From positions 1-64,000 of IMG/VR virus record IMGVR_UViG_2518285548_000002: 64,000 nt of DNA; one strand, written 5' to 3'. This DNA comes from a virus (lineage: Duplodnaviria; Heunggongvirae; Uroviricota; Caudoviricetes). This document shows, piece after piece, positions 2,296 to 30,211 of the stretch (positions within the stretch are counted from its first letter, which is position 1; each line of letters begins with the position of its first letter). Position numbers and translations under genes: made by a program. The notes under the pieces were generated by a model. It did not search any database and was not told the origin of the DNA. It worked only from the letters and a program-made list of their open reading frames with translations.

Positions 2296-2296
2296 A

Positions 2297-2740
2297 TTAG
2301 GTAAGCCCCTTTTCGATTTGGGATACTGCTTCAAGCAGTGCGTAATAAGACGAGTGCAAACCTGCTCTGTCGTCAAGCAGGATGTTGTAGTATACCTTGC
2401 GACCACCAAACGGGGTGAAGTCCATGTTCTCATTGATCTTGTCGTAAGGAATAAGATTCTCGTGAAGGTACTCACGGATGTCATCGTACTGACCTTCATG
2501 ACAGCAGGTAAACACGATGAAGTGGGCACCTGCACGTTTGCACCGTTGAAGGAGCGAGATCACGTCATTGTACTTATCCCCTCGCTTATGGAAGTCGAAT
2601 ACGGTGTCATCGAAGTCGTAGGCTATAATTATCTTGCCATGCTCACGCCATTCCTTCAGAAGACGCTGAACTACGTTGTACTGGTCTAGGAAGAAGTCAG
2701 CCACTAGATCATCTCCGTTACTTGGATACTGCTCTCCCAA
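2297..2740 (-). CDS. HAD-superfamily phosphatase
   Basis: DxDxT motif (IIAYDFDDTV) near N-terminus; translationally coupled between the Prs-like and NAMPT-like genes. Confidence 0.7.
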   Translation of the reverse strand: MGEQYPSNGDDLVADFFLDQYNVVQRLLKEWREHGKIIIAYDFDDTVFDFHKRGDKYNDVISLLQRCKRAGAHFIVFTCCHEGQYDDIREYLHENLIPYDKINENMDFTPFGGRKVYYNILLDDRAGLHSSYYALLEAVSQIEKGLT

Positions 2741-3534
2741 ACCTCAGGGATTTCGATTAGCAGTGTGTTGGTGGTGTACACCTTGTCGATCAGATCGGAT
2801 GTGAACACACTGCCCTTGAAAATGGAGTCCTCAGCGTGGGTAACTAGGAGGTATACCTTATCCGCGCCGACATCACGGAGAGCGTTAGAACTACGGATGA
2901 AGGTGTTACCGTAGGAGCAAAGGTCATCAACAATAATAGCCTTGAATCCTTTACCTTCGACAGAGCCAACCAATTGGAGTTTGTCAATCTGCCCTGTCTT
3001 GAAGTCACGCTCTTTAAACCCTACCAGTTGCTTAAACTTGGTGAAGTGCTTGCCATACCGCTTCTGAGCACCCTGATCGGGGAAGAATAGGTAATCCTTT
3101 TCAATGTCGAAGTTCAGGTCTGCCATGACTTCGTGTAGCAACCTGGTTGTAGGGTAGAGTGCTACACTACGATCAAGGAGAGCCATAGTCACGTCCGAGT
3201 GCGGCTCGATCACCGTGACATACTCAAAATTCATGCCGTTAATCATATTGGCTACATACTTTAAGGTAAACACAGAGTTCCCTTCTACCCTATCCATCCT
3301 GCTGTAAGGCATGTACGCGATAGTTAGGTTGGTTGTGAAATAATAGCTATCCAAGAATGATTTAACGAACAGGAGCTTCAGAAGATCGCTATCGTTCTCA
3401 TACTTGAGAGTTACTTCAACTTCTACCTCTCTTGATTTGAATTTAAGAAGTTCGATAATTTGTTCCCCGTCAACCAAAGTCTCCCCGTTAGGGAAGACTT
3501 TGAAGTTGAGGGGGGTACCGTTCAATTTAATCAT
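2704..3534 (-). CDS. ribose-phosphate pyrophosphokinase family protein (Prs / Adps-like)
   Basis: PRPP-synthetase-like fold motifs incl. IIVDDLCSYGNTF (cf. Prs DD..DTGGT PRPP-binding loop); 276 aa, shorter than canonical Prs. Confidence 0.8.
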   Translation of the reverse strand: MIKLNGTPLNFKVFPNGETLVDGEQIIELLKFKSREVEVEVTLKYENDSDLLKLLFVKSFLDSYYFTTNLTIAYMPYSRMDRVEGNSVFTLKYVANMINGMNFEYVTVIEPHSDVTMALLDRSVALYPTTRLLHEVMADLNFDIEKDYLFFPDQGAQKRYGKHFTKFKQLVGFKERDFKTGQIDKLQLVGSVEGKGFKAIIVDDLCSYGNTFIRSSNALRDVGADKVYLLVTHAEDSIFKGSVFTSDLIDKVYTTNTLLIEIPEVWESSIQVTEMI

Positions 3535-4069: not shown

Positions 4070-4503
4070 CAGAACTTATCCCTAACACATTTGTCGAGGA
4101 AGGTTTCGCTCATAACGTTGTAGAACGGTGTACCGTTTCCTTTGATAACCTCAACGAAGTAGGTGAAGCTGTTATTCACCCCACACAACTGAGGTGATAT
4201 GCTGACAACCTTCATGGTACGGCTAGACATAGGGTGATCGAACTGGTCTCCTACATGGTACTTAGGACGAGGTACCTTAGCTAGATCATTTAGATCGACC
4301 AGTTGATGCAACTCACTTAACGGATGCATCGAAGGTCGATCATGGTCGCTAATTTTTAGCACAACGTAGTCCTGACCTTCAATCTTCATAAACGATACAA
4401 TCTCGTACTGGACAAACGTAGTAGAGCTACGGTAAACGTCTTCAGCTTGGTACTCAGTACCTTTGTAATAAACACTCATGGTTGTTTTAGCCATGGTTAG
4501 TTT
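4069..4503 (-). CDS. hypothetical protein (start trimmed to internal Met)
   Basis: ORF-track version overlaps upstream gene by 200 nt; internal MKLTMAK start removes overlap. Confidence 0.45.
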   Translation of the reverse strand, partial: KLTMAKTTMSVYYKGTEYQAEDVYRSSTTFVQYEIVSFMKIEGQDYVVLKISDHDRPSMHPLSELHQLVDLNDLAKVPRPKYHVGDQFDHPMSSRTMKVVSISPQLCGVNNSFTYFVEVIKGNGTPFYNVMSETFLDKCVRDKF

Positions 4504-5656: not shown

Positions 5657-5863
5657 TTGATATTTTTGATCGGCACTCTAACAAAGAATTTTCAGGGTAG
5701 ATATGCCTTACCTAACGGACAATACTTTACAACAGGTGATGAAATTGAGGTTAAGCTAGATATAACTTGGATAAAAACAAGCGTACATCATGACTTAAAA
5801 GATTATTACCTAGTTGATTATCCAAATGTTCCAATGAAAGGATTATTGGCAAGGAAGCCATAA
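5657..5863 (+). CDS. small hypothetical protein (TTG start)
   Basis: GGGAG RBS 5 nt upstream of TTG; lone plus-strand gene in minus block. Confidence 0.45.
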   Translation: MIFLIGTLTKNFQGRYALPNGQYFTTGDEIEVKLDITWIKTSVHHDLKDYYLVDYPNVPMKGLLARKP

Positions 5864-5878
5864 TTCGTGTTCTGATCA

Positions 5879-6145
5879 TTAGGTACCTTTTTTAGGTCGA
5901 GTAGAAATCTCCTTTTCTCCATCGGGAAGTCCCCCAATCACTTCGTTATCTTTTAGATATTCAAGGTCATAAATAAAGTCATGCCCACAGGTTGTGTATT
6001 TGAAGTTAGGCATTTCAGTAGAGTAGGGGATGTAGTCGTAGTAAGATATTTCATCACACTTCCTGCACCACATCCATCTTCTTTTATGCCCCTCAGGAAT
6101 AGGGGGGACATCAGGAAGTTTTACTTTACCAATAGGTTTAGACAT
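5879..6145 (-). CDS. hypothetical protein (CxxC..C.H)
   Basis: ORF. Confidence 0.5.
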   Translation of the reverse strand: MSKPIGKVKLPDVPPIPEGHKRRWMWCRKCDEISYYDYIPYSTEMPNFKYTTCGHDFIYDLEYLKDNEVIGGLPDGEKEISTRPKKGT

Positions 6146-6149
6146 TTCA

Positions 6150-6350
6150 CTACCTCCATAGTTGTATTTCTCTGTTTGTAGCCCTTTTTACAGATGGTTT
6201 ATTAACGGGGGTATCCTTTCCATCGAAGAGGTACCACCACCCACATTCACTTACTTCAGCTATCCTGCCGTAGCCGTGACGTTGACAAAAGCCCCACTCA
6301 CCAACTCGCGGTTTACGATATTCGTTTAAGTCAATAACCTTCATCAGCAT
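6150..6350 (-). CDS. hypothetical protein
   Basis: ORF. Confidence 0.45.
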   Translation of the reverse strand: MLMKVIDLNEYRKPRVGEWGFCQRHGYGRIAEVSECGWWYLFDGKDTPVNKPSVKRATNREIQLWR

Positions 6351-6375
6351 AACCTTCTTTCATAATGAAACCGCC

Positions 6376-6582
6376 CTATAAAGGACGGTTATTCAGCCAG
6401 TTATTGAAGTGCTTCACGTCTTTTATGTCAACACAGTCGTCTATGATTGTGATTTTATCAGGATGAACTTCATTATATTGAAGGTATACCGCGTAAGACT
6501 CCATGTATATTACAGCGGCTTGATCTGATTGTCTAAGGAAGTTTTCTGTATTTGTGACTTTGTTCAAAATTCTAACCCCCAA
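6376..6582 (-). CDS. hypothetical protein
   Basis: ORF. Confidence 0.45.
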   Translation of the reverse strand: MGVRILNKVTNTENFLRQSDQAAVIYMESYAVYLQYNEVHPDKITIIDDCVDIKDVKHFNNWLNNRPL

Positions 6583-6751
6583 TTACAATTGTATCTGAAG
6601 CTCTAATCCAACGGGCGACATAACCAACCACGGAATATCTCATGGTACCCAAAATGGACTCAGCTTCCCCTTTAACGAGTAAGCCTTGACCAATCTTATT
6701 TCGGTACCGTGCTCCTTTACTGGTCGCACCCGTTATGAGCACGGTTTTCAT
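6572..6751 (-). CDS. small ORF (59 aa) MKTVLITGATSKGARY..., ATGA-coupled to helicase stop
   Basis: Not in ORF track (<60 aa); ATG overlaps TGA of SNF2 gene; N-terminus resembles a Rossmann TGxxxG motif. Confidence 0.35.
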   Translation of the reverse strand: MKTVLITGATSKGARYRNKIGQGLLVKGEAESILGTMRYSVVGYVARWIRASDTIVIGG

Positions 6752-10433: not shown

Positions 10434-10973
10434 CTATTTTTCTGAGTACTTATTTGCGAGAAGTTCAGACAACTGTTCTGCCCTTACCTTCGATAAATCT
10501 ACATTCTCCCATTCCTTAGAGAGTGATGAGATCATCCTAGTCATTCGGAGAACACCGTACCTACCCATCATGTTCTGCAACATTTGACGAGTCTCAGACG
10601 AGACTTCAGTACCCGTGACCTCTTGGAAATAGTCAACGATTTCTACTTCCTCTTGAGAGGGTATATGACCAAAACCGAACTTTAGCCACCCGCGTAACAT
10701 CCCGATGACATACGGGAAGTTTCTCTTTTCTACATTTTTCTTAGAAACTACATGAAAGGCTTCGAGAATCCACTCATAAGCAGGAAGACCTCTGTTCTGA
10801 ATCAATCTGTAGTACTCGCTAACTCCCTCTCTTACTTCTGAAGTGATAAAGTTGTACTGCATCAAGTCTTTGAAGATATTGCACAGAACATCTAAAGTCT
10901 CTTTATCTCCATTAGGTTTTCCGTACTTTTCTTCATAGTACTCTCTCAATGAAGTGGCAACATTTTCAATCAT
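10434..10973 (-). CDS. putative DnaD-domain replication protein
   Basis: FPYVIGMLRGWLKFG resembles DnaD C-terminal Y-x3-I-x3-W motif. Confidence 0.45.
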   Translation of the reverse strand: MIENVATSLREYYEEKYGKPNGDKETLDVLCNIFKDLMQYNFITSEVREGVSEYYRLIQNRGLPAYEWILEAFHVVSKKNVEKRNFPYVIGMLRGWLKFGFGHIPSQEEVEIVDYFQEVTGTEVSSETRQMLQNMMGRYGVLRMTRMISSLSKEWENVDLSKVRAEQLSELLANKYSEK

Positions 10974-11079
10974 CTTAAATCTCCTCTCGTAGTATCAGGG
11001 CGAGGGTGTGGACTACCACTGATGCACTAGGGCACCCCTTTCTACCACCGTCCGTAGACAGTGGCAGGGTAGTGGTGTC

Positions 11080-11259
11080 CTAGTTAATTTCATGGAAAGC
11101 GTATTGGAACTCAGACTGATCTTCCATGGGAAGCTCAATGTATCGGTAACGCTGTTCACTGGTGTTCAGTTCAAAAGTCCCGTCAGCGTCTATGAATATA
11201 TCCCCGTACTCAACTCCAAAATGCTCCATGATTGCATCCACTACGCCTACTTTATTCAT
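11080..11259 (-). CDS. small hypothetical protein (59 aa) with strong RBS AAGGAGG
   Basis: Not in track; antisense partner 11092..11283 (+) judged spurious. Confidence 0.45.
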   Translation of the reverse strand: MNKVGVVDAIMEHFGVEYGDIFIDADGTFELNTSEQRYRYIELPMEDQSEFQYAFHEIN

Positions 11260-11354
11260 ACGAATCCTCCTTGTGTTAGTTAATACTTAGATGAAATTAG
11301 TCCTTTAAGACCAGTGTCCCAATACCACCTTTGGTGTTTGTCACACCTTCATAT

Positions 11355-12323
11355 TCAACAGACATCACTCTGTTCCTTTATGAACCGTTCTAAGTCTAGT
11401 GCTTGGAGGGCACGGTTATACATGTCCAAGCCCACCTCGCTGATGAAATAATCTCGGTTGTAATCCTCAAACCACCTAACATCATTCTCATCAACGTACC
11501 CGAACTCAATCGCCTTGTAGCAGACATAGGTAGGGGTCATGTCCGTGCCGCACTCTTTAGGGACCATGAACTCCTCATCCTCGTGCTCACCCTTATTGAA
11601 CCTTATGACAGCCATACCTAAGTCTTGAGCGAGATCGTGGTTAATCGTCCGTTTGTATCCGTAACGGTATATATAGTTCAGCATAATCTCATCGCAAACT
11701 AACTCACCCAATTCACTTAACTCATCCTCTACCCAGGCTACTCGGAGTTCATCAATCTCGTCCTCAGCAACCTGTTCCGATTCATGCTCGGACTCCAAAT
11801 CTTTCAGGTCACCGTTATCGGGGTCATACTTGAATATTACATAATGGTTTCGGAATGACCAATTAGCTTCCTCGTCACTATGCTCCTTGAGGTAAGCAAT
11901 AGCCTCCTCAGCATCTTCCACATCCGTGCAGGTGGAGCCTTCAACTGCTTCGCTACCATCCCATCCGAAGGTAATAGAAGGGTATCTTGGGTCGTAAACT
12001 ACAAATAGCGATTCGATCTTGTAAACAAGAGCAGATTTTTCTTCAAGGTGCTCACGGTATGCTTCTTCTGATCTCCATTCGCTACCATTAGGGGCGGTGT
12101 GGGTACCCGTCACAATCTCGTAATCGGTCATCCATTCATACTCACTGATGTCGGAGGACTTCATAGTGATACTGCTGACAGGAATCCACGCCTGAATATT
12201 ATTGTACTGCACCTGCTTAATCTCAGTCACAATGTAGCTCAGGCTCTCACGAAGTGGTTTTTCATCCTCAGGAATGAAACGGATGAGAGCATTATAAGCA
12301 TTGTCGATCTTGGAGTAAGACAT
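11355..12323 (-). CDS. hypothetical acidic protein
   Basis: ORF; start ATG overlaps stop of an 18-codon upstream uORF (TAATG). Confidence 0.6.
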   Translation of the reverse strand: MSYSKIDNAYNALIRFIPEDEKPLRESLSYIVTEIKQVQYNNIQAWIPVSSITMKSSDISEYEWMTDYEIVTGTHTAPNGSEWRSEEAYREHLEEKSALVYKIESLFVVYDPRYPSITFGWDGSEAVEGSTCTDVEDAEEAIAYLKEHSDEEANWSFRNHYVIFKYDPDNGDLKDLESEHESEQVAEDEIDELRVAWVEDELSELGELVCDEIMLNYIYRYGYKRTINHDLAQDLGMAVIRFNKGEHEDEEFMVPKECGTDMTPTYVCYKAIEFGYVDENDVRWFEDYNRDYFISEVGLDMYNRALQALDLERFIKEQSDVC

Positions 12324-12417
12324 TAGGTTACCTCTTTTCTGTGCTCGGCGGCACTAATAGTGAGGGGTAAGCCCTCCATGACACCCACCACCCGAAGGTG
12401 ATGGGTGGGAGCAGGGT

Positions 12418-12960
12418 TTAACGGAAACCTTCACCAAGTTCTACACCATATACATCGTTGACCCACTCACGAATAGTATCGCCGTATCCAATAAACCCGT
12501 TCCACGTAAGCAGTAGGTTGAATATTTCATCCTTGGGCATCTTCATAATCTTTTTGTCCATAGAGGTGTCGTCACTCTCAAGATCGAGGTTCTGGCGTAT
12601 AGCTTCCATAACCTCATCAGGGTACTCCACAGGCTTACCCACAGGCTTATCCACAGATTTATCCCTCATCTTTGCGTCAAGGGCAGGAAGGAGGATGTCG
12701 GTTACTATACTCTCAATGACCACAGCATCACCACTCATGATGTCATGCTCCTGAAGTTTATAGGCACAATTGGTAGGTTGTGTAGTCTCCATAGATACCC
12801 AATAGTTAGGAGCCGAGATAATGTATACCTCACGGGCAGGGTTATAAGCTATGGATACCTGATACCTGCCCCCCGACCAACCTGAGTCAACCTCTACAGC
12901 TACGGAGATGATCTCCTGTACATTCTTAATTTCCTTTAGTTCCAAGTCAGTTTTCTGCAT
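12418..12960 (-). CDS. hypothetical protein (start trimmed to MQKTDLE with AAGGAGG RBS)
   Basis: Upstream 126 nt of track ORF correspond to the conserved leader element. Confidence 0.55.
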   Translation of the reverse strand: MQKTDLELKEIKNVQEIISVAVEVDSGWSGGRYQVSIAYNPAREVYIISAPNYWVSMETTQPTNCAYKLQEHDIMSGDAVVIESIVTDILLPALDAKMRDKSVDKPVGKPVEYPDEVMEAIRQNLDLESDDTSMDKKIMKMPKDEIFNLLLTWNGFIGYGDTIREWVNDVYGVELGEGFR

Positions 12961-13113
12961 GATAAATCCTCCTTGATTTGAGTGCTCGTGGCACTTGTTA
13001 GAATTGGGTGGAGTGGGGAAGCGGCTTCCCATGGGAGGGGTGTCCCTTCTAAGGGATACCATAGACCACTCCATTGAACAACCCACCTTCAGGTGAGCTA
13101 TTCTAGTAGGGGT

Positions 13114-14160
13114 CTATTCCCAAATCTTTATGGTATCGTGAGGACGTTCAATAAGAAAGTACTGAACGCCCATGTTTCTCAAGTACTTGAGAAAGTCATT
13201 TTCATCGAATATTTCCTGAGCTTGTTTATGACAATTATCAGGGTCAACATAATCGTCCCCATCAGATTCACTCAATGAACTTTCCTTAGCTTTTTCGATT
13301 GCTTGTGATCGAAAGTCCGCAAGGTGCTTTTCCACGATGTCAGGAGTTATATCGGCATTGATGTAAGCGATATTACCATCATCGTCATTCCAAAGGTCAT
13401 ACCAATGACTCCCTGTTGGCTGTAGCAAAGGCTCCCAATGAACTTCCCTAACCCATGCGCTAAACTCGGCATAGAATAGATTTTGCGAATCGAGCGAGAA
13501 CACCACCTCGGTGAAATTCTTGCTTTGTAGGTCGGCTAGAATTTCATAAGGTTTGTCGTTCATACCTTGGTGCAGTCCCAACTGGTAGCTATGCTCGTTG
13601 TACTTCCTGAACCCTGCGGCGATCAGCTCATCTTTGGAGAGGAGGGCGGACTGCACTGCCTTATTGGGATTGTTGATGCATTGATTCAGGTAGTCGTCCT
13701 TGTAGTTTTTATCCTTGAAGCACGAGGTGCATACTTTTCCGTTCTCTATCTGATAGTAAATGTCAGGGGATGATGAGTTGAACTCAATTACCTCCTCACA
13801 CTCAGAACACTTTTCGTACTGATCTGAGAACCCATACTCACCGTATATGTCCTCGAACCATAGCCCATCAAACCCTGCCGTACTCAAGGCTACCTCAAGC
13901 TCTTTAGGAACCGAAAAACCTCCATACGCTAGGCTACCGTAAGTGAGCAACTGATCTAGTTGAACCAACCCTGCTTCACGGTACATTGGCATAACCTGTG
14001 GGGTGAGGGAGCTGACCAAGTGAAACAGTAATCTATTAATAGCTGACCAACCTTCCACAATAGCGAAATCCTCACCATTACGTAGGCAAGGGATAATTCC
14101 GTCATAAAGGTTGTTCTCAGTCATCCATTCACGGATAGTGTTTTTCGTAGGTATAATCAA
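13114..14160 (-). CDS. hypothetical protein with CxxC pairs (start uncertain, TTG at 14160 after AAAGGAGAG)
   Basis: Track start 14232 lies in terminator T-run without RBS. Confidence 0.5.
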   Translation of the reverse strand: MIIPTKNTIREWMTENNLYDGIIPCLRNGEDFAIVEGWSAINRLLFHLVSSLTPQVMPMYREAGLVQLDQLLTYGSLAYGGFSVPKELEVALSTAGFDGLWFEDIYGEYGFSDQYEKCSECEEVIEFNSSSPDIYYQIENGKVCTSCFKDKNYKDDYLNQCINNPNKAVQSALLSKDELIAAGFRKYNEHSYQLGLHQGMNDKPYEILADLQSKNFTEVVFSLDSQNLFYAEFSAWVREVHWEPLLQPTGSHWYDLWNDDDGNIAYINADITPDIVEKHLADFRSQAIEKAKESSLSESDGDDYVDPDNCHKQAQEIFDENDFLKYLRNMGVQYFLIERPHDTIKIWE

Positions 14161-14239
14161 GCTAATCTCTCCTTTACCTTCTCTATACGTGGTATAGGGA
14201 TGGTTGTTTAGTAGCACTCGATAGGTGCTCAAGAAAAAG

Positions 14240-14275
14240 ACCCATCCAATGGTATCGGATGGGTCTCTCTATCAG
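14240..14275 (-). terminator. rho-independent terminator
   Basis: GACCCATCC-loop-GGATGGGTC then TTTTTCTT on minus strand. Confidence 0.6.
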
Positions 14276-14330
14276 CATCTATTCTGTTAAGGGTTACCTA
14301 TGTAGCTACCTAGGGATATTTTTCCGTCTT

Positions 14331-14789
14331 TCATCCGAACACCCATTCTCCGAAGATACCTAATTGGAGTATCACGTCAGAATCACCTGCGTCAAGCTGA
14401 CCTGCGTCTAGCTTCCCATCGTAAACGAAATTCACCGTGTTACGCTCTGCTCGGTTGGCAACAAATAGCTCAAGACCTTTCTTTAGTCCTTCAAGAGTGA
14501 GAGTACCATTGTATTCGCCGCCCTCGTTGTCCTCGAAGTAGATAGTTCCACCATCTAGTAAGGCATGGAAAGCCCACTCTGAGGTGCACCAGTCATGGGC
14601 ATGTGCTTCCTTCTTGTCAGGGATGGTCGGGTGGTTGACCTCAACTTTACCTACCCAGTATGTACTACCACCTTCCCAAGCACCAATCAGGATGCACTCT
14701 AAGTCGTTCAATGTGTAGCTGATCGGCACTGGTACAGTACCCTCAGCCTTGTTATACCTCTCTTCTAACTCTTTACGGTTGATCGTCAT
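14331..14789 (-). CDS. hypothetical protein
   Basis: ORF. Confidence 0.55.
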   Translation of the reverse strand: MTINRKELEERYNKAEGTVPVPISYTLNDLECILIGAWEGGSTYWVGKVEVNHPTIPDKKEAHAHDWCTSEWAFHALLDGGTIYFEDNEGGEYNGTLTLEGLKKGLELFVANRAERNTVNFVYDGKLDAGQLDAGDSDVILQLGIFGEWVFG

Positions 14790-14791
14790 GG

Positions 14792-15508
14792 TTACTCACC
14801 TTTACCTTTCTGTATTTTGTAGGTCTTAGCTTCCTTAACAGCATCAGGGTCGAGGATGATCTCCTTTTCAGGGAACCATCTTACCTCACCGTTCCTTAAC
14901 CTACGGTGATGACCCTTCCGAGTCCATCTGTGGGTGTGACGTTCATAATCTCTCTTTTCCCGTTCCTCAGTAGGGGATGGGGGAGGGGTGACTACTCTGT
15001 AGGTGGTCTGCCTAATGTATACCGTGCGGTTCTTACTTTTCTTACCTTTAACCTTGCCTTTTTTGATCTTGGGTACCTTGCTCTCTTGCTTCTTAACCTT
15101 AACAGTGTTGTCAGTCATACGTTGCATGACTGCCTTGAATAGGTTGCTGAAGTAACGAGCTATATCGGTTAGCTTATCACGATCACCAGGGTTGCGAGGG
15201 GTGGTTAGGAGAGTGATCTCCGTACCTGAGGTCTTCCACTCAAGGATAAGGTCTTCTACAGGCTTATTCATCTTAAAGTGACCGTTACCTGATTGGTCAT
15301 CCTCAAGGTGAAAGATTATCTCCATATCATCCTTACCACCGTAATCTAGGTTCAAGATACCCCTCAGTAGGGGGTACCTGAAGTTGCTAAGGACTCCAAA
15401 TAGTGCGAATACACTGCTAGTAGCGTAGTTCATCATGTCGTACTTCTTACATAATGCGTCAGCAAACTGACCTTCAATCACGACTTTATCATAGGCTGCC
15501 TTGTCCAT
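14792..15508 (-). CDS. hypothetical protein with basic K/R-rich C-terminal half
   Basis: ORF. Confidence 0.55.
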   Translation of the reverse strand: MDKAAYDKVVIEGQFADALCKKYDMMNYATSSVFALFGVLSNFRYPLLRGILNLDYGGKDDMEIIFHLEDDQSGNGHFKMNKPVEDLILEWKTSGTEITLLTTPRNPGDRDKLTDIARYFSNLFKAVMQRMTDNTVKVKKQESKVPKIKKGKVKGKKSKNRTVYIRQTTYRVVTPPPSPTEEREKRDYERHTHRWTRKGHHRRLRNGEVRWFPEKEIILDPDAVKEAKTYKIQKGKGE

Positions 15509-15523
15509 TTAGGTCAATCCTCC

Positions 15524-16003
15524 CTACACCGCTTCATTGTGCCACCGTAGACCACGCTTCTTGTAAAGTGGAACCCAGTGGCTTTCGTAGAAGTTGTACC
15601 CTGCACCATTGATGCCGAAGAAGATACCTAAATCATCGTCATCGTACACCCAAAAGCCACACTCTCGCATGGCTTCGAGACCGCCATGATTTCGTACCCA
15701 GTCAGTATCGAGAGAGTCACCGAACGTCCACATAGTTCCCCACATAGGGAAGTCGCGGGCTTCATGGAACTCGTTACGCCCACATGACATGCAGATTAAG
15801 GTGTCGTCATCTTCATCATCGGAGCTTTCTGTGGTGTATTCAGTACAACCGCAATAGTCACATGTAAGATCAGTAGCAAGTACCTCAATGTGGCTGTCAT
15901 CCAGACCGTAAGGGAAAGTGCGGAGGATGAATGATTGCGGGATAGAGTTGAAGTCCCTTACCCAGTGTTTAGTTGCTTCCAATACATTTTCAAATTTTGA
16001 CAT
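15524..16003 (-). CDS. hypothetical Cys-rich protein (CDYCGC..CMSCG)
   Basis: ORF. Confidence 0.55.
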   Translation of the reverse strand: MSKFENVLEATKHWVRDFNSIPQSFILRTFPYGLDDSHIEVLATDLTCDYCGCTEYTTESSDDEDDDTLICMSCGRNEFHEARDFPMWGTMWTFGDSLDTDWVRNHGGLEAMRECGFWVYDDDDLGIFFGINGAGYNFYESHWVPLYKKRGLRWHNEAV

Positions 16004-16103
16004 CTAAAGTCACCTCATGCTATTTAGTGGTGGCGTTGCTCTAGGCAATCAGGCACCCTATCCTATACCCCACGGCAGGGTGGGGTATGGTAACGGTGTC
16101 CGA

Positions 16104-16976
16104 CTATTCGGTGTATTCTTTTGCCCACTGGCTGATCTTATTCTGAGTGAACCTATCCACCCTGTTGTAGTAGTCATCCCGTGCTTGGGTGCCGAACTTC
16201 TTCTCGAACTCTACCGCCCAATCGTGAATCTCACTCAGGAGGCGGCGGGAGTCGTAACCGTCAGGCATCTTGTCTTGGTTTAGGGCTATCCAAGCACCGA
16301 CCTGAATGGATATGTCCATGATTACCTCGTCCAGTCTTCGGTAGGACAAATCCTTATAGCTACCATACGGCTTCTCTTTGTTGGAAGCCCTTAGGTCAAG
16401 GCTGTATAGATTGTGTTTAATCCTATCCTCCTGAACCCTCGGTGTACCATTCGGAGTGAATCCAATCATTTGCTGACCGTTCTCACCGTGATACTGGATG
16501 TCAACAATCACATCCTTGCGGTCACGCATAATCATGCCGCATACCGTAATGTGGTCACCTGCGGGTAGCTTCATGACTAGGGTGTGACCGTCCTCAACCT
16601 CACCGAAGTCAAGAACAGTGTGGTTATACCAGTTGAAAATAGGGGTACCACTCGATTCAAGCTGATTCAGCATGGAAGGGGAGTATACCGAGGTGGGGAG
16701 GGGCTTGGCTTCAATCATAGGTACAAGCACCGAGTACTCACTATGTAACACTTGGATTAAACCTTCGTCCTTCTTAACTAAAACCTCCTGACGGTTATAG
16801 TCAGATACCTCATACACCTGACCTTTCTTGTAATGACCTATCGTTTTTGTGGTGATAATCTTCTCACCGCGTTTAGCGTTGCGGCTCTCTACGTGGTACG
16901 GAACACCTTCATGGGTGTAGAAGTCCTTGGTCAGGATGATTGCAGGTTCATAATTAGCCAGTTTCTTAGTGTTCAT
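16104..16976 (-). CDS. hypothetical protein
   Basis: ORF preceded by conserved leader element. Confidence 0.55.
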   Translation of the reverse strand: MNTKKLANYEPAIILTKDFYTHEGVPYHVESRNAKRGEKIITTKTIGHYKKGQVYEVSDYNRQEVLVKKDEGLIQVLHSEYSVLVPMIEAKPLPTSVYSPSMLNQLESSGTPIFNWYNHTVLDFGEVEDGHTLVMKLPAGDHITVCGMIMRDRKDVIVDIQYHGENGQQMIGFTPNGTPRVQEDRIKHNLYSLDLRASNKEKPYGSYKDLSYRRLDEVIMDISIQVGAWIALNQDKMPDGYDSRRLLSEIHDWAVEFEKKFGTQARDDYYNRVDRFTQNKISQWAKEYTE

Positions 16977-17078
16977 GAGAACAGCTCCTCATCGTGGTAG
17001 TAGTACTCGTGCTCTTGGCACTCATAGGTACTCCATTGGAACACCTCACCTTTGGGGGGGGGGGTGCCCTAGCAGTGT

Positions 17079-17453
17079 CTATGCGGCTTCAGCTTCCCGC
17101 TTATCCTTCAGGTACTCCTCGGTGTAGTACTCATCAGGTACCTCACCGTTAGCCTGAACAAAGTCACTGTTGGTGTCATGAGTAAGGAACCAAGGGACGA
17201 ACTCAAGGAAGTTCTTGCCGCTCCCTGCGACATCCTTGAACTCTATCGCATCCCCAGGGTAGTATACGATGGTAGGGTTCATGTCGCTGACCGATTGATA
17301 GTAACGGTCAGTAACATTGCCCTCATCGTCAAGCTCAGCTTCCCCGTGAAGTATGGCTTGCTCAAGCTCAAGGGTGAAGCTGTTCAGGCAGGTTACAGCA
17401 TCCCAGTTTAGGTCGTTTCCGTTCAATCCGTATTTATAGCTCATGTTTTGCAC
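17079..17453 (-). CDS. hypothetical protein
   Basis: ORF. Confidence 0.5.
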   Translation of the reverse strand: MQNMSYKYGLNGNDLNWDAVTCLNSFTLELEQAILHGEAELDDEGNVTDRYYQSVSDMNPTIVYYPGDAIEFKDVAGSGKNFLEFVPWFLTHDTNSDFVQANGEVPDEYYTEEYLKDKREAEAA

Positions 17454-17638
17454 ACCTCGTTTTTAAATTTTTTGATGGTTTCACCGCTTTCCAACTGGAT
17501 GAATACTTCCTTCTTCCAGTTGTACTTAGTACCGTCAGGGGAGGGGGCGACCCTACCGTACATCCCTGCATGGTCTCCAATCTCAATACGTACCCTCTCA
17601 TCCTTGTTGAATCTCACTCTCATTCCTAAACTTCTCAT
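17441..17638 (-). CDS. hypothetical small protein
   Basis: ORF. Confidence 0.45.
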   Translation of the reverse strand: MRSLGMRVRFNKDERVRIEIGDHAGMYGRVAPSPDGTKYNWKKEVFIQLESGETIKKFKNEVCKT

Positions 17639-17677
17639 TTTTCTATCTCCTCTTAGCTCAGCTCATCTAGGCTCGTC

Positions 17678-18376
17678 TTATTGCAGTGCATCAAACATAT
17701 GGTGGTACTCTTTGGGGATGTTCTCGGCTATCCCGTTCTCTACAGGGTTGCTACCGTAGAATCCCCAATAGCTATCCTTATCAGTGAGAAATCGGTTCAG
17801 CTCATCCTCACTCAAGTCATCTCGCTCGGCACCGATCAGCTCAAGGTACTTACCCAGTTTTTCGGTGTCTATCTTTGCGAAGGTGAACCCGTACACATCA
17901 CCTGTTAGGTACTGGTCGTATACCTTAACCTCGTTCCTTAGCATCTCCTTAGCCTTGCCACCTTTGAACAGTTCCTCCTCGGTGTAACCTGTCTCGTTTC
18001 GGAACGCCTCTTTTGTGGCATATATCCAACCAATCTGACCACTATCCCAAAGGCAAGAGAACCCAGTTGTGTTCATCGTTATTCCGCTGTGGTCGTACAA
18101 GAACAGGGGGAGGATGACTATATGAGGGTCGATAATCTCCATCAACTCGTAGTCCTTCAGCTCGTCCAAGTCTCTGTCACTTTCGTCATAATCAACAGCA
18201 AGCGACATCAGGAAGTCACGTGGTGAATCATGGGTATGTTTATCACCCAAGGAGTAGCGGCTGTGCCAACAGACCATCTTGCCAAGATTGTCCCAGTTGC
18301 GGGGGCTATCAGGTATTGTGTCCTGTTCAATCACCAACAGAGCCGTATCAGTCATAGCTTTCTTTTTCATAAACAT
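17678..18376 (-). CDS. hypothetical protein
   Basis: ORF preceded by conserved leader element. Confidence 0.55.
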   Translation of the reverse strand: MFMKKKAMTDTALLVIEQDTIPDSPRNWDNLGKMVCWHSRYSLGDKHTHDSPRDFLMSLAVDYDESDRDLDELKDYELMEIIDPHIVILPLFLYDHSGITMNTTGFSCLWDSGQIGWIYATKEAFRNETGYTEEELFKGGKAKEMLRNEVKVYDQYLTGDVYGFTFAKIDTEKLGKYLELIGAERDDLSEDELNRFLTDKDSYWGFYGSNPVENGIAENIPKEYHHMFDALQ

Positions 18377-18455
18377 TCACCTCATCGTATAAGTAGCACT
18401 CATAGGTGCTCCATCGGATACCCCAACCATGGTGGAGGTACCCTAGTAGCATCTA

Positions 18456-18989
18456 TTACACCAATGTCATTTGCTCGGGCTTATCCGACTTCGATAGGTC
18501 GATAGGTGCTTGGGCAGGTGTCTTAGGTACAGGCTTATATACGTTCAGGTTCATTTTGATGGTCTTAAACAGCGGCAGGTTACTACCTGTCTTGGCGATA
18601 AGAATGTTCTTGCCGCTACCCGACTCACCAAGGTCAGAGGTCAGGTCAACCGCAATAGTCAGCTTAGAACCTGCTACCTTGGCAGTACCACCTGCAAAGC
18701 CGATCTCAGCCTTGGCTCCTTTGAAGTCAATCGCAGGTTCTTCTGCACTCTTAGGCAGAGCCTTGTATACATTCAGGTTGATCTTCACACCGCCCGCACC
18801 GATTGGCATATTGGAACCTGTTTTTGCGATAAGGATGTTCTTGCCGCTACCAGATACGCCCAGGTCTTGCGATAGGTCTACCTCGATGATTGCCTTGTTG
18901 TTAGCTACCGATTTTACGATTACGTTTTCCATGTGTACATTCTCCTTTTTGCCCTCAGTGGGGCTAGTTATTTTGGTGCCTTTAGGCAC
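18456..18989 (-). CDS. hypothetical protein with two tandem ~65-aa repeats (IEVDLS..SGSGKNILIAKTGSN..NLNVYK)
   Basis: Internal repeat; paralogous to 20579..20977. Confidence 0.55.
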   Translation of the reverse strand: MPKGTKITSPTEGKKENVHMENVIVKSVANNKAIIEVDLSQDLGVSGSGKNILIAKTGSNMPIGAGGVKINLNVYKALPKSAEEPAIDFKGAKAEIGFAGGTAKVAGSKLTIAVDLTSDLGESGSGKNILIAKTGSNLPLFKTIKMNLNVYKPVPKTPAQAPIDLSKSDKPEQMTLV

Positions 18990-19032
18990 TCCTTTAGGTA
19001 CCCCACGGGTGGGTGAGGTACCTTAGTAGTGT

Positions 19033-19266
19033 CTAATCCATCAATCTTCTCAGCTCAACTTGTAGTGAGTTCAATCGTCTTCCTTGCTCTCTAAGTTCCC
19101 TCAGCTCTAACTCAACTGCATCTATCTCATCTATGCTAACCTTGCCGTTCATCAATCTATCGGAAAGGTTAGCGATCTTGAAACGATTGCTCTCTATCGC
19201 TTTCTCAAGCAACCCTTGGGTACTTGATAAGATGGAGGTGGATCTATCAAGAGTCATTACACCCAT
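19033..19266 (-). CDS. hypothetical coiled-coil protein
   Basis: ORF. Confidence 0.5.
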   Translation of the reverse strand: MGVMTLDRSTSILSSTQGLLEKAIESNRFKIANLSDRLMNGKVSIDEIDAVELELRELREQGRRLNSLQVELRRLMD

Positions 19267-19852
19267 TTCAGTTCCTCTCCCTCCTGTACCGCCTTGACTA
19301 GGTAGCGTTCGTCATTCTGAATCCAGTGACTCCGATCGTTTTCATCAGGGGTTTCCACATCGACTACATCATCAAACCAATCTTTAAATTTCACACCAAT
19401 CACCTCGGTGAATTAGTAGTGCTCGTAGGCACTCCATGGGGATACCTAACCAGAAGGTTAGATACCCTAGCAGTGTCTAAGATGAGTCACTTGGGCGATA
19501 GTTGACCATAGATATATAGATTCCTGAATGCTAGTCTTCGGGATAGCCTACTAATTGCCACGATCTGCTGAGTCCTTGTGAGCATATTAGGCACCCTTCC
19601 TTTCCTGTTCAGCTATAAGTTGTCTGAGATATTCGATGAGTCCGCCGACTTTGCCAAAGTAAGCCACTATCAATTTAGTCACGCTGATTCCTCCTTGAAT
19701 TTGACACATCTATGCCAACCAGAAACCCAGGATATAAGCACACTCCGTTTAGGTACTAGCAGTACTCATGGGTATGCTTTTTCCTGCACCACCGTACCCC
19801 AAATCGGGGTGGGGCGGGGGGTAGGGCTAGGCATGGTCAGGCACTCAACTCA

Positions 19853-19881
19853 GCTATACGATACAGATATATAAGAGTTAA
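19853..19881 (-). promoter_or_regulatory. promoter-like motif P5 (TTAACT-N17-TATAGC), candidate start of long minus-strand operon
   Basis: rc 19853-19858 TATAGC, rc 19876-19881 TTAACT, 17-nt spacer. Confidence 0.45.
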
Positions 19882-20512
19882 GAGCTTGAACATACCTAGC
19901 CGTGGGTATGGGTAGCCTTCTTGGGCACTCAGGTATACCAATAGGGTAGAGAGTGGGCACCTCAAGCTATCTCCACCACAGCTAGATGGGTAAAGTATGG
20001 TTGACCGTATCATGTGACTACTCACACTGCACTCGGGATTAAAGGGCATGTCTATATAAGCCTGAGCGGTATCCCGTGGGGATGGCTAGGCACACTCATA
20101 CCAAAAGTGGGGCGGGCGGGGGCAGAGTATCCTGTTGGATGCTTACACTCCTATATAAGAGACACCCATCATATAAGAGCATGACACTAGAGAAGGAAGC
20201 TATAAGAGAGACTGCCGAGGTATCGGTCACCATCATGGATAGACTTCACCCGTGACTCGTACTTGCCTATGCAGTCTCATACCCGCTACATATTAGCCTT
20301 CTAGGTACACTCCTAGACGTACCCTTGTGGGTACAGAAGTACTAGGCTTCGCTTTCTCTGCTCAAGCTCTCGGTTGGTGCGTGGTGTGTGAAGTGGTAAT
20401 AACTTAGACCCAAATTGCGGCTGTTGAACTGACTTCTTTATATAGGAATAGCGGCTCATTGGATTATTGGCTAATTCCACAACATCACATAATACGGATT
20501 ATGTGCAATAGG

Positions 20513-20575
20513 CTCCTAGGTCTGCCACTCATGGGCTAGTCAGGACTACCCAAGCATAGGCATGGGTAGGTCTTG
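20513..20575. repeat. left arm of ~40-bp inverted repeat flanking gene 20579..20977
   Basis: AGGTCTGCCACTCATGGGCTAGTCAGGACTACCCAAG; its rc matches 20993-21055. Confidence 0.6.
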
Positions 20576-20578
20576 ATA

Positions 20579-20977
20579 TTAGTTAGTGCCTTGCATCGCT
20601 TTGAACTGCTTGAATGCTTGGAACTCAGCCCAAAGTTTAGCATCTTCCTCGCTCATGGTAGGTACACTGGTAGCAGGTGTAGCAAGTTCTTGTACTGGTG
20701 AAACATACTCGTCAATAGGGATATAGGCGTTCAGGTTCAAGACTACATTCTGAAAGCCTTCCTTTTTCAAGCGAATACCGCCTAAAGTAGATGCTACGCG
20801 GGCAGACTTCTCGCTTTGTGTGAGAACTTCCTTATCAATCACGTTCAAATCAACCTCAATAATGAGCTTGTTTTTGTCGTTCACGCTTATTTTCATGTTC
20901 TCAGGTGCCTTCTTTGATTGCGCTCGTTTAGCCGCTTCCTTCTCGAATTTAGGCATAGTGATAGCTTTGTTTATCAT
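20579..20977 (-). CDS. hypothetical protein, single-repeat paralog of 18456..18989
   Basis: Shares IIEVDL...GFQNVVLNLNAY motif. Confidence 0.55.
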   Translation of the reverse strand: MINKAITMPKFEKEAAKRAQSKKAPENMKISVNDKNKLIIEVDLNVIDKEVLTQSEKSARVASTLGGIRLKKEGFQNVVLNLNAYIPIDEYVSPVQELATPATSVPTMSEEDAKLWAEFQAFKQFKAMQGTN

Positions 20978-20992
20978 GGATAATCAGTCTCC

Positions 20993-21055
20993 TTTGGTGT
21001 GGTTTGACTACCTTTGGTAGTCCTGATTAGCCCATGAATGAACAGACCTCTAGCA
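20993..21055. repeat. right arm of inverted repeat
   Basis: GGTAGTCCTGATTAGCCCATGAATGAACAGACCT. Confidence 0.6.
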
Positions 21056-21908
21056 TAGCAAGGCATCTGTAACCACCGAACCAGTCGGCTCTCGCACCTT
21101 GTACTATGCACGTCATAACGCAGACGTATTGCGTGATATCCTCGCCATGTTGGGCATGAACTGTAAAGCGTAGGCTGTTGCCATAGTTCAATCCGTCATG
21201 TCACACACATAAGTGTGGCAAGAGAAGTTGCGTATCCCATGCACATGTAGTGCATGTTTCGGGTATCGAGTTGTCAAAGGACGTGAGACACATTTCGTGC
21301 CTTGCCACATGTCTTGCATTCGAGTTGTTACTCGTTCGAGTCGTTCGTGGCGACCGATTCGACACCCATATCTAAGAACGCAATAGAGTCGGATTGCAAT
21401 ACCTCTTGAACAGGTTTTTTTATAAAAAATAAAATCAAACAGAAGTCAAAATCGTACTCCCCCCAGTGTCTTGGTTTTTTCAATGATTCCGAATCGGCGC
21501 ACGGAGTGTCATGATACATATGGGAAATTTTTAGTGAACCTTGATGCGCGATAGGTCTTTTCTAAAGGGGGTGTCTCGTGAGGTCTCGGATGGTGCGAAA
21601 GGGGAAAGGAAATTGTCTTGGAGAAATGTTTTGGGGCGAGGGTGGCGGGGTCTTTGGCAAGGGGGATTGGTAAGGTGTTGGGAGAGGGGAAGGGCAAATT
21701 GAAAGAGAGTCGTTCCTCTTATATAAGGAAAGCGACTCTCTTGGGGGAGCAGGGAATTTTTTGTGGAACCTTGGTGCGGTACGGTTCCGTGATTGTTACG
21801 ATGTTACCTTACTTTATATGTATTATACGTTTTTCCGCTACGCGGATTACTGTTATGTTCGGCAGGGCGCACTTCCCTAGCATAGGTACGAGCGTGATCA
21901 GACCGTTG

Positions 21909-22187
21909 CTATCTGTTTTGAGGTTCACCTTTGTCAAATACCTTGCTTACTACTCCTAGTGCGAACCCTAAGGCGGCGGCTACAAGCCAACCCTGCTTAC
22001 CGTTTTCTTCATCTATTAGATACTCCAAAGCTCCTAAGTAAGCAAGAGCCACACCGATCAGAATGCAAGATATGAAGCTAGTTGCAGGATACGAGTGGGT
22101 GAATGCCGCTATTAAAATGAATATAATGATTCCAATTGCGATTGTCATGTTACACCTACTTACTCGAATATTTAGATAGCTCGCCAT
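21909..22187 (-). CDS. small membrane protein (2-3 TM)
   Basis: Hydrophobic segments; overlaps end of SLH protein gene. Confidence 0.5.
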   Translation of the reverse strand: MASYLNIRVSRCNMTIAIGIIIFILIAAFTHSYPATSFISCILIGVALAYLGALEYLIDEENGKQGWLVAAALGFALGVVSKVFDKGEPQNR

Positions 22188-22953
22188 TATCCTTTAGGTG
22201 GTTGTACAGGCGATGTAATATGGTCACGGCTTCAGCCCTGGTGACCTGATCGGCGGCTTCAAATTCTCCATTATATGTTGTCATGATACCGTGCTGTTGA
22301 AGGGATGCCACTTTCGGGGCAACAACTTCCGTGTAATCGTCAAAGATTTTCATAGTACCATTGTCTAAGTAGTCAATTACGAAAGGGAATACAGTGTTGG
22401 TCATATCGACTCCATACATGTATCTGTTGTCATCGTAGTTATCGGAGACTACGATCTTGAAGTCTTGCATCTTGGAGACTCTCTTATACGCTTCGTCTAA
22501 AGAAATTGGACTGTAAACTTCAGGCAGAAGGTTCACGACCCCCATTCTTGTAAGTTCTTTATCAGGATCGAACACCTTACCTTCCTTTGTATAGTAAGAG
22601 AAGTTCCCAGTATCCATCATTGGTGCCATGTCGTAGATCGCAGTGTACGCCCAGTAATTCTTCGGGACATCAATGAATTTGTCCACAACTAGCTCCTGTG
22701 ATCTGTACTTGTCAAATAGCTTGTGAGTCATCGAGATAAACTCGGCTTTGGTGACTTTCTCATCAGGCTTGAATGTCCCGTCCGAGTATCCCGTGACTAC
22801 TCCTTTCTCGGTCATGAAGCTGATGGAACTGATCGCCCACGAGTGTTGGGTCTCACTCACATCTTTGAAATTGGAGGTCTGTGCGCTTGCGGCAGTGGAG
22901 CCGATAAGCAGTGATGAAGCTAGTGTTATCGCTAGTACAATCCTCTTCTTCAT
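22156..22953 (-). CDS. secreted SLH-domain protein
   Basis: Signal peptide MKKRIVLAITLASSLLIGSTAASA; SLH motifs (..GYSDGTFKPDEKVTKAEF.., ..ADQVTRAEAVTIL..). Confidence 0.7.
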   Translation of the reverse strand: MKKRIVLAITLASSLLIGSTAASAQTSNFKDVSETQHSWAISSISFMTEKGVVTGYSDGTFKPDEKVTKAEFISMTHKLFDKYRSQELVVDKFIDVPKNYWAYTAIYDMAPMMDTGNFSYYTKEGKVFDPDKELTRMGVVNLLPEVYSPISLDEAYKRVSKMQDFKIVVSDNYDDNRYMYGVDMTNTVFPFVIDYLDNGTMKIFDDYTEVVAPKVASLQQHGIMTTYNGEFEAADQVTRAEAVTILHRLYNHLKDNGELSKYSSK

Positions 22954-30137: not shown

Positions 30138-30211
30138 TGGCAACGGATACAGGAATCGAACCTGTGCGAACGGCTTCAAAGACCGTTGTTCTACCACTAA
30201 ACTAATCCCCT
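30138..30211 (-). tRNA. tRNA-like gene, anticodon UUG (Gln-like), one G.G mismatch in acceptor stem
   Basis: Manual fold: acceptor AGGGGAT/ATCCGTT, D-arm GTTT-AGTGGTA-GAAC, anticodon stem-loop ACGGT-CTTTGAA-GCCGT, T-arm ACAGG-TTCGATT-CCTGT, encoded CCA. Confidence 0.4.

Follow-up and report, generated by a model that had tools for sequence, protein, structure and literature searches.

Nine covarying intercistronic hairpins in the early operon of a Brevibacillus laterosporus prophage as probable SP82/SPO1-type RNase III processing signals

The stretch of DNA analysed here, positions 1 to 64,000 of the IMG/VR virus record IMGVR_UViG_2518285548_000002 (64,000 nt; hereafter the window), belongs to a prophage of Brevibacillus laterosporus; the 230-amino-acid (aa) protein encoded at 17678-18370 matches an NCBI B. 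laterosporus protein with 100% identity, and contig KB894295.1 carries the same locus. The structural genes, on the plus strand, are closest to those of the Jenstvirus phages Jenst, SecTim467, and EZ-2018a (portal 45-47%). The minus strand from about 21000 down to 1 forms a single long array of mostly small genes without known function, with an SNF2 helicase and NAD-salvage enzymes at its end; the operon terminates just beyond the window start and is followed by a lysis cassette and host genes (SASP, TerC). Between 10971 and 19482 this early operon contains nine copies of a conserved hairpin element, E1 to E9 (Table 1), all on the minus strand and every one of them in an intergenic gap, on the coding strand. 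These nine elements, and their likeness to the ribonuclease III (RNase III) sites of the phages SP82 and SPO1, are the subject of this work.

The original prediction had described six copies of a repeated leader element and a possible seventh at 10974-11079. The repeats are present as described and occur far beyond chance. The 5' motif TAGACACTRCTARGG was found in three exact copies and one with two mismatches, on the minus strand only, and the 3' motif ATGGAGYRCCTAYGAG in three exact copies, again on the minus strand only, with seven matches against 2.4 expected when up to three mismatches were allowed. A covariance model built from nine aligned candidate copies and a written structure (model R1), used to scan both strands of the 64 kb with filters off, returned exactly nine copies at 48-70 bits, the next best match scoring 14.5 bits. 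The possible seventh copy is real (E9), and the copies listed were sound, while the list was incomplete in that it missed E5 (16004-16106) and E6 (14161-14330).

When the leaders were folded with RNAfold, all nine copies gave one architecture, in which the conserved flanks TAGACACTGCTA and ATGGAGTGCCTA pair together around a variable hairpin. Because the flanks pair with one another, each element is one long interrupted hairpin of 22-26 bp, here called HP1, and the 10-13-bp hairpin of the original prediction exists but is the tip only of this larger structure. At the base of HP1 is an outer stem, UAG/CUA, of 3-7 bp, often including the stop codon of the upstream gene (E2, E3, E4, E5, E7, E8, and E9 have this stop within the outer stem or directly next to it), followed by a 1x1 A.C mismatch. 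The middle part consists of a 4-bp stem, CACU/AGUG, a G.G mismatch, a C-G pair, and a 2x2 loop with UA opposite AU, and the tip is an apical stem-loop of 9-17 bp and free sequence. On the 3' side of HP1 come a small second hairpin, HP2, and then the ribosome-binding site.

Covariation, which had been suggested as a check, is strong. Among the nine window copies, 84.6% of cells are paired as opposed to 38-47% with a slid partner, and 16 of 22 pairs are changed on both sides; the 4-bp stem alone occurs as CACU/AGUG, UGCU/AGCA, CACC/GGUG, and CCCU/AGGG. The genomic contexts of homologs of a 232-aa protein provided two further sources of copies, a prophage of Paenibacillus xylanexedens (L033) and an IMG/VR contig from an isolate genome (L035), which together with the window prophage make up a family of 21 copies from three prophages. 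In the family alignment, which was fitted to a covariance model and is biased toward the structure, 88.6% of cells are paired (38-47% in slid controls) and 18 of 22 pairs show compensatory double changes, values attained by none of 500 shuffles. RNAalifold independently gives the same fold for the 21 copies, with compensatory changes in 19 of 20 pairs, and adds a core C-G pair which covaries to A-U and U-A and is never broken (C13-G64, retained in 21/21: CG 16, AU 3, UA 2). Across the family the duplex has 20-22 pairs, interrupted, and spans about two helical turns. Its unpaired positions are conserved as well, namely the A.C mismatch in 17/21, a G.G or A.G in 21/21, and the UA/AU loop or a close variant in 21/21. 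The sequence AUGGAG is present in 12 of the 21 members, the rest having purine-tract variants.

The paired cells contain 35 G.U against 5 A.C combinations, and in seven of the nine window copies the sense fold is more stable than the antisense fold. The G.U asymmetry, the single orientation, and the position within the operon together indicate that the structure is one of the mRNA rather than of the DNA, in agreement with the original prediction, which had taken these leaders for structured elements acting at the RNA level. Searches against Rfam retrieved no known family here: at the gathering score the only match in the window was a tRNA elsewhere, and in the region 10800-22300 there was no match at E<=1. 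A kink-turn and CsrA-type motifs were considered and set aside, there being no tandem G.A pairs and no GGA loops in the elements.

HP2 is a 4-bp stem with a loop of the form C-N(2-4)-GA. A pattern for it matches the minus strand 13 times, seven of these within leaders of the elements, compared with 3.4 matches in shuffles. Its stems covary, with GUGC/GCAC, GCAC/GUGC, UUGC/GCAA, and GCCC/GGGC in the window and UGCC/GGCA and GGCC/GGCC added by the Paenibacillus prophage. The ACTACTA box that had been noted before the gene starts is present and is really the 3' (far) arm of HP2, pairing with GGAGYRC. Where the element is compact, as in E1, E3, E6, and several L035 copies, the GGAGYRC tract that serves as the 3' arm of the HP1 lower stem doubles as the 5' arm of HP2. 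Because this tract is shared by HP1 and HP2, CACUGCUA (the 5' box) and GCACUACUA (the 3' box) are near-duplicates competing for one partner. This mutual exclusion is not universal, since in E7 and E8 HP2 is a separate hairpin. When 3' fragments from AUGGAG onward were folded alone, a hairpin formed within the first few nucleotides in most copies. We also considered HP2 as a palindromic DNA operator and rejected this, as GUGC/GCAC and GCAC/GUGC are different DNA sites and equivalent RNA helices.

The best indication of what the elements do came from SPO1. A model built from the 21 prophage copies only (R2), searched over 1.5 Mb of fetched loci, gave, other than the known copies, solely three matches at E<0.1, with 27, 20.2, and 18.8 bits; all three are in the SPO1 host-takeover module, intergenic, and on the coding strand. 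The SPO1 record AF031901.1 bears six deposited features named 'RNAse III site RS-A ... RS-F', and one of the R2 matches overlaps RS-C. Conversely, the four best window matches of a model built from six SPO1 sequences only (R3) are E3, E1, E2, and E6, E3 being the best at 15.7 bits; their E values (0.026-1.4) are individually modest, but these four top ranks are not chance, because the elements occupy less than 1% of the search space. In the Paenibacillus prophage the top three R3 matches are the three known copies, the best with 25.9 bits and an E value of 2.7e-5. Models from the window-type prophages and from SPO1 therefore each find some members of the other group, although the modest R3 scores in the window and the five copies missed there place the two groups far apart.

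The likeness extends to details. RS-A to RS-D have a core UUGCUAG (UUGUUAG in RS-D), a hairpin, and (C)AUGGAG, and most of them continue with a GCUACUA-like sequence; the 1x1 mismatch is A.C in RS-A and A.A in RS-B, and RS-C and RS-D carry the upstream stop TAG in the 5' arm. The SPO1 sites overlap the ends of genes 41, 43, 45, and 57, and SP82G has the same six sites with compensatory differences. Common to the SP82/SPO1 sites and the window copies are thus a location between cistrons, on the sense strand of an early operon, the upstream stop in the 5' arm, the succession of YUGCUAG, apical hairpin, and (C)AUGGAG with a CUAG/CAUG 2x2 loop (C-G, UA/AU, G-C), a 1x1 mismatch in the lower stem with A on the 5' side, and a downstream CUACUA box able to pair with the GGAG tract. 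The phages themselves are of different types, the window and the Paenibacillus copies being in prophages (that of the window temperate and Jenstvirus-related), whereas SPO1, a Herelleviridae myovirus, is a lytic phage of B. subtilis. In the window copies, unlike the SPO1 sites, a further stem segment of 4 bp separates the A.C mismatch from the core, and there is no BLAST-level similarity between the two; cleavage of the window copies is a prediction. Moreover, early sigma-A promoters and terminators are interspersed among the SPO1 sites, whereas a scan found no promoters between the window genes.

Two SPO1 copies that fit the consensus are without annotation in AF031901.1, one at 4108-4166 (+) in the gene 44 leader, after promoter PE5, and one at 10532-10587 (-) between genes 58 and 57, adjoining terminator TL2.7; their SP82G counterparts lie near 5863 (+) and 13080 (-) of the locus fetched for that phage (L126). 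The annotated RS-E and RS-F are without the GCUAG/AUGGAG core.

SP82 early RNAs are cited in PMC4838370 and PMC1935012 as the classic phage substrates of B. subtilis RNase III (Panganiban & Whiteley 1983; Mitra & Bechhofer 1994), and PMC1935012 cites Mitra & Bechhofer for RNase III cutting the SP82 substrates at one site, on the 3' strand of the stem. For the SPO1 module, RNase III cleavage sites are attributed to Stewart et al. 1998 as cited in PMC3896407. The B. subtilis enzyme cleaves duplexes with a 2-nt overhang, and hairpins 3' of processing sites can stabilise the cleaved isoform (PMC11780869). A sequence of SP82 resembling a ribosome-binding site stabilises the RNA downstream of it and raises LacZ output 7-fold, as PMC7509114 and PMC11805744 report from Hue et al. 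1995.

For the nine elements, a conserved and covarying structure on the sense strand, an intercistronic position, recurrence in relatives, and a family-level similarity to deposited RNase III sites are established here, and, judging by these sequence comparisons, they are probably intercistronic processing signals of the SP82/SPO1 type, i.e., sites for the host RNase III combined with 5' stabilisers. Of the three functions offered by the original prediction, processing sites is the one best supported, through the similarity to the SPO1 sites. The accompanying remark that such leaders are atypical for phage operons does not hold, as the early regions of SP82 and SPO1 carry the same kind of element, and so does that of T7.

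In the mechanism that we propose, the early minus-strand operon would be transcribed as a long polycistronic RNA. A promoter scan found no excess of sigma-70-type sites (28 against 24.6 expected) and none in the elements or between the genes, and such promoter-free gaps fit one long transcript requiring processing. Between cistrons this RNA would fold into HP1, with its fixed imperfections (A.C, G.G, and the 2x2 UA/AU loop) and its core CUAG...CAUG, and the host RNase III would recognise and cut it. To judge from the SP82 substrates, there would probably be a single cut, on the 3' side and close to where CAUG meets GGAG. The upstream message would then retain a 3' hairpin, while the downstream message would begin near the purine tract GGAG, with GGAGYRC refolding with the GYRCUACUA box into a 5'-proximal HP2. 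This hairpin, ribosomes bound to the purine tract as a ribosome-binding decoy, or both might shield the new 5' end from 5'-to-3' decay. The outcome would be one long early transcript cut into stable single-gene messages.

The 5'-terminal part of this scheme has counterparts in the 5' stabilisers of Bacillus. The SP82 polypurine sequence (Hue et al. 1995) and the STAB-SD of cryIIIA (Agaisse & Lereclus 1996), as they are cited in PMC7509114, PMC11805744, and PMC3997798, resemble the predicted 5' ends here, which have a purine tract like a Shine-Dalgarno sequence (GGAG or AAAGGAG) and a small hairpin nearby. Unlike these stabilisers, the window tract is only 4-7 nt long and would be partly sequestered in HP2 when refolded, and we infer the stabilising role of GGAG and HP2 from the features present in the sequence, namely the GGAG tract and an HP2 at the 5' end of the 3' fragment.

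The RNase III sites of the T7 early region (R0.3-R1.3) are hairpins with internal loops between early genes, cut once on the 3' side, and leave a protective 3' hairpin on the upstream mRNA. The logic is the same as that proposed for the window, but the sequences are unrelated, and T7 relies on another host enzyme. T7 substrates are mentioned in the context of RNase III in PMC1935012.

Several points weigh against this assignment. R3 reaches only four of the nine window copies, with modest E values, and R2 returned the SPO1 locus without RS-A, RS-B, or RS-D at E<=1. The labels 'RNAse III site' in the SPO1 record are annotations by the depositors. Comparison of the region and of E1 with 50,697 phage records by megablast and blastn revealed no similarity. 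The cleavage, the enzyme, and the position of the cut are what we infer from the likeness to SP82 and SPO1. Furthermore, the published SP82 stabiliser may correspond either to the conserved GGAG or to the true ribosome-binding site, which lies further downstream. Lastly, the chromosomal targets of RNase III in B. subtilis have a modest sequence motif only (PMC11780869), and for that reason the strong conservation of the elements could reflect another factor that recognises them.

Relatives of the prophage, whose lack of the elements would have spoken against the family, carry them. The Paenibacillus prophage has three copies, all intergenic and on the coding strand, with CGCU/AGCG and CUUU/AAAG as new compensatory variants of the lower stem, and L035, syntenic with the window at about 70-78% nucleotide identity, has nine. 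Comparison of the window with L035 places E1, E6, and E7 in conserved islands whose flanks are unrelated or more diverged; E6 is 86% identical between the two and the other aligned segments 68-78%. L035 carries different genes between E1 and E2 and a different gene after E5, as well as one additional gene with an element copy on either side. The conserved cassettes therefore sit at mosaic junctions of gene exchange between related prophages, which we regard as a side effect.

Elsewhere, model searches found none in the whole genomes of Jenst and EZ-2018a, though these phages are close by their structural genes, none in 21 kb of phage vB_BcoS-136, though it shares the 232-aa protein family, and none in the SPbeta-like contig L032 or in 79 other IMG/VR loci encoding that family. 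Exact and gapped motif scans of IMG/VR, of 185,579 GTDB species-representative genomes (inclusion of B. laterosporus unverified), and of JGI metagenomes gave chance matches, which, checked by model and by eye, are without the hairpin, the sole exception being the contig L035/L114. A protein-pattern search of IMG/VR with a single protein returned nothing. In vB_BcoS-136 (L006, 1-21064), about 20 early intergenic gaps have a near-identical strong sigma-A promoter, TCTGTTGACAAA-N17-TATAAT (TTGACA-N17-TATAAT), which is another way to express a similar array of small genes.

The conservation of unpaired positions also suits a different kind of ligand. If the elements served to bind a specific protein that is not RNase III, such as a phage translational regulator or antiterminator or a host RNA-binding protein controlling the downstream cistron, then the invariant A.C, G.G, and UA/AU loop, the conserved C-N(2-4)-GA loop of HP2, and a sequence specificity above the usual need of RNase III (PMC11780869) would be expected. 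We nonetheless consider this unlikely. The 20 operon proteins scanned against Pfam include no RNA-binding candidate domain, PMC4838370 and PMC1935012 refer to the SP82 versions as documented RNase III substrates, and with the motif occurring in unrelated phages without an evident regulator in common, the SPO1 myovirus and prophages of two genera, the host enzyme is the only known common factor. That E1, E6, and E7 are conserved islands relative to L035, and that L035 has an extra gene between two elements, could instead mean that the elements serve as DNA-level linkers for homologous recombination that shuffle gene cassettes, a role in which the PeSL elements (a terminator-like stem-loop with an early promoter) of T4-type phages have been described (PMC4122927, PMC2839356); PeSLs, too, are repeated intergenic cassettes in a variable early region at breakpoints of gene content. 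For recombination, though, identity suffices, which leaves the compensatory changes, the G.U bias of the sense strand, and the conserved mismatches unexplained, and the window stem-loops, unlike PeSLs, have no sigma-70-type promoter consensus and have boxes that covary as RNA pairs. We therefore hold the linker role to be improbable, and regard shuffling as more plausibly a consequence of the elements than what they are for.

Mobile cassette systems offer a superficially closer match. Single-stranded-DNA hairpins recognised by a recombinase or transposase, as in integron attC sites or REP-like (repetitive extragenic palindrome) elements, have paired conserved ends, extrahelical or mismatched bases, and a variable tip, and the window elements, like attC, follow open reading frames (ORFs) in one orientation, often together with the stop codon. 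The core sites RYYYAAC/GTTRRRY are absent, however, the ends being of the UAG(A)/CUA type with no GTTRRRY at any 3' boundary (an integron integrase was not scanned for); the G.U bias favours RNA, the family resembles RNase III sites, and it is not dispersed, the pattern scans of wide collections having given chance matches only. This origin is very improbable in our view. We give even less credence to attenuators, either leader peptides or terminator-antiterminator switches, that would govern read-through into each gene. The alternative pairing of the GGAGYRC tract with the 5' or the 3' box and the terminator-like stem and U-run of E6 recall such devices, but a U-tract follows the stem in E6 only, a terminator scan reports none of the nine elements, and in E7 and E8 HP2 stands apart from HP1, so that alternative pairing is not universal. 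The short ORFs on which the original prediction had drawn exist as letters (MEYL and MEHL before a stop, an 18-aa peptide ending in TAATG, and one in-frame ATG) but are not supported as upstream ORFs: the ATG, in five of nine window copies and 13 of 21 overall, is not conserved, has no ribosome-binding site, and lies inside a helix, the frames vary, and the ORFs run for 4-18 codons or are fused to the gene, with no conserved peptide. The AUGGAG is instead a structural part of the hairpin that is also present in the SPO1/SP82 RNase III sites. A promoter for a phage RNA polymerase or sigma factor, suggested at first sight by an SP6/K11-like 5' box, was rejected as well, since the boxes covary as pairs and their spacing tracks the apical stem.

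The interpretation as RNase III processing signals can be taken a step further, to an idea we put forward only tentatively and consider rather doubtful, that the element is a refolding switch triggered by processing and doubles as a portable expression cassette. In this model, tract B (UGGAGYRC) would pair first with the 5' box A (YRCUGCUA), building the RNase III substrate; after the cut, B would be freed to pair with the near-identical 3' box C (GYRCUACUA) and cap the new 5' end. In the window the three strands of this design covary, and four SPO1 sites are predicted to refold in a comparable manner. Because the cassette occurs in a lytic myovirus and in temperate prophages, across three Bacillales genera, and at mosaic junctions, it may spread horizontally. 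If so, it could be a plug-in unit by which newly acquired early or anti-defence genes are expressed from a foreign operon.

We take the elements to represent a known mechanism and element class in new hosts and a new type of phage, not a new kind of element; the SP82 processing signal is dated in PMC4838370 and PMC1935012 to 1983 (Panganiban & Whiteley). The signal has been thinly sampled, is absent from Rfam, and is undetectable by BLAST, and it is here extended from lytic SPO1-like phages to temperate Brevibacillus and Paenibacillus prophages. The 21 new natural variants, with six each in SPO1 and SP82G, provide a covariation-backed consensus (A.C, G.G, and the CUAG/CAUG loop) that could inform work on the specificity of Gram-positive RNase III and the design of intercistronic insulators or stabilisers for expression in Bacillus. 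A family model would also flag gene calls that start inside elements and mark operon structure, and the coincidence of the elements with gene-swap boundaries bears on the evolution of variable early regions.

Table 1. Coordinates of the two hairpins of each element in the window, with R1 scores for HP1.
Feature	Position	Strand	Details
E1 HP1	19418..19482	-	62.7 bits; leader to GTG start 19394; conserved island relative to L035
E1 HP2	19419..19432	-	GUGC-CUACGA-GCAC; 5' arm shared with the HP1 lower stem, where it is the 3' arm
E2 HP1	18975..19038	-	70.5 bits; outer stem holds upstream stop TAG (19035-19033); gene start ATG 18932
E2 HP2	18951..18964	-	GCCC-CACUGA-GGGC; immediately 5' of the ribosome-binding site
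E3 HP1	18395..18458	-	68.2 bits; lower stem UGCU/AGCA; 230-aa gene downstream from 18370
E3 HP2	18396..18409	-	GCAC-CUAUGA-GUGC; covaries with E1
E4 HP1	17017..17084	-	56.7 bits; index copy of the original prediction; TAG in outer stem; gene ATG 16976
E4 HP2	17009..17021	-	GUGC-CAAGA-GCAC; nested within an outer GUAC/GUAC stem
E5 HP1	16042..16105	-	60.3 bits; fold z-score -3.9; lower stem CACC/GGUG, outer CGG/CUG
E5 HP2	16036..16048	-	UUGC-CUAGA-GCAA; nested
E6 HP1	14221..14284	-	48.2 bits; fold z-score -5.95; 86% identity to L035 ortholog
E6 HP2	14214..14228	-	GCAC-CUAUCGA-GUGC; read from sequence
E7 HP1	13055..13118	-	60.8 bits; long leader to ATG 12960, with extra hairpins
E7 HP2	12982..12994	-	GUGC-CACGA-GCAC; separate from HP1
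E8 HP1	12360..12423	-	60.4 bits; lower stem CCCU/AGGG; outer UAA/UUA with stop TAA
E8 HP2	12341..12354	-	GUGC-CGCCGA-GCAC; separate from HP1
E9 HP1	11021..11084	-	54.7 bits; fold z-score -4.5

One copy, E6, has a tip (14233-14270) with a perfect 17-bp stem followed by UUUUUCUU, resembling an intrinsic terminator; in the L035 ortholog the stem is retained and the U-run is weaker. Given this terminator-like appearance, E6 may also divide the operon into two transcription units. Two public gene calls begin inside elements, a 372-aa product from TTG 14232 and a 177-aa product from GTG 18989; the starts backed by strong ribosome-binding sites and L035 orthologs are TTG 14160 and ATG 18932.

Just upstream of E1, at 19487-19681 (minus strand), two short ORFs of about 31 and 32 aa overlap, with TAATATG as their junction; a good ribosome-binding site precedes the first, and both are kept in L035. 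Further upstream of the array, two stretches of about 0.9 kb on the minus strand, 19700-20578 and 20980-21900, are without a convincing ORF. They have 75-78% nucleotide identity to L035, as high as that of coding DNA, are partly kept in the Paenibacillus prophage (5754-6660), and had no Rfam match at E<=1. Repeats of CTTATATA, hairpins rich in C (CCCCGCCCCACCCCGATTTGGGG), and degenerate fragments of HP1 occur in them, and they may represent either a non-coding RNA or a long leader that is structured.

The 158-aa protein encoded at 18456-18932 (minus strand) has an internal duplication, with DLGxSGSGKNILIAKTGSN...NLNVYK occurring twice, and is similar to the 132-aa protein encoded by the operon's first gene (20579-20977, minus strand). 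Neither protein has a Pfam family, and the 158-aa gene, scanned as the 177-aa ORF, has no PHROG. The tRNA in the window is a tRNA-Gln (UUG) gene, located on the minus strand at 30138-30211, with the regulatory region on one side and the packaging genes on the other. The operon's distal end (805-3534, minus strand) encodes a NAMPT-like phosphoribosyltransferase and a PRPP-synthetase-like protein, which look like a NAD-salvage pair; pairs of this kind counter NAD-depleting defence systems.

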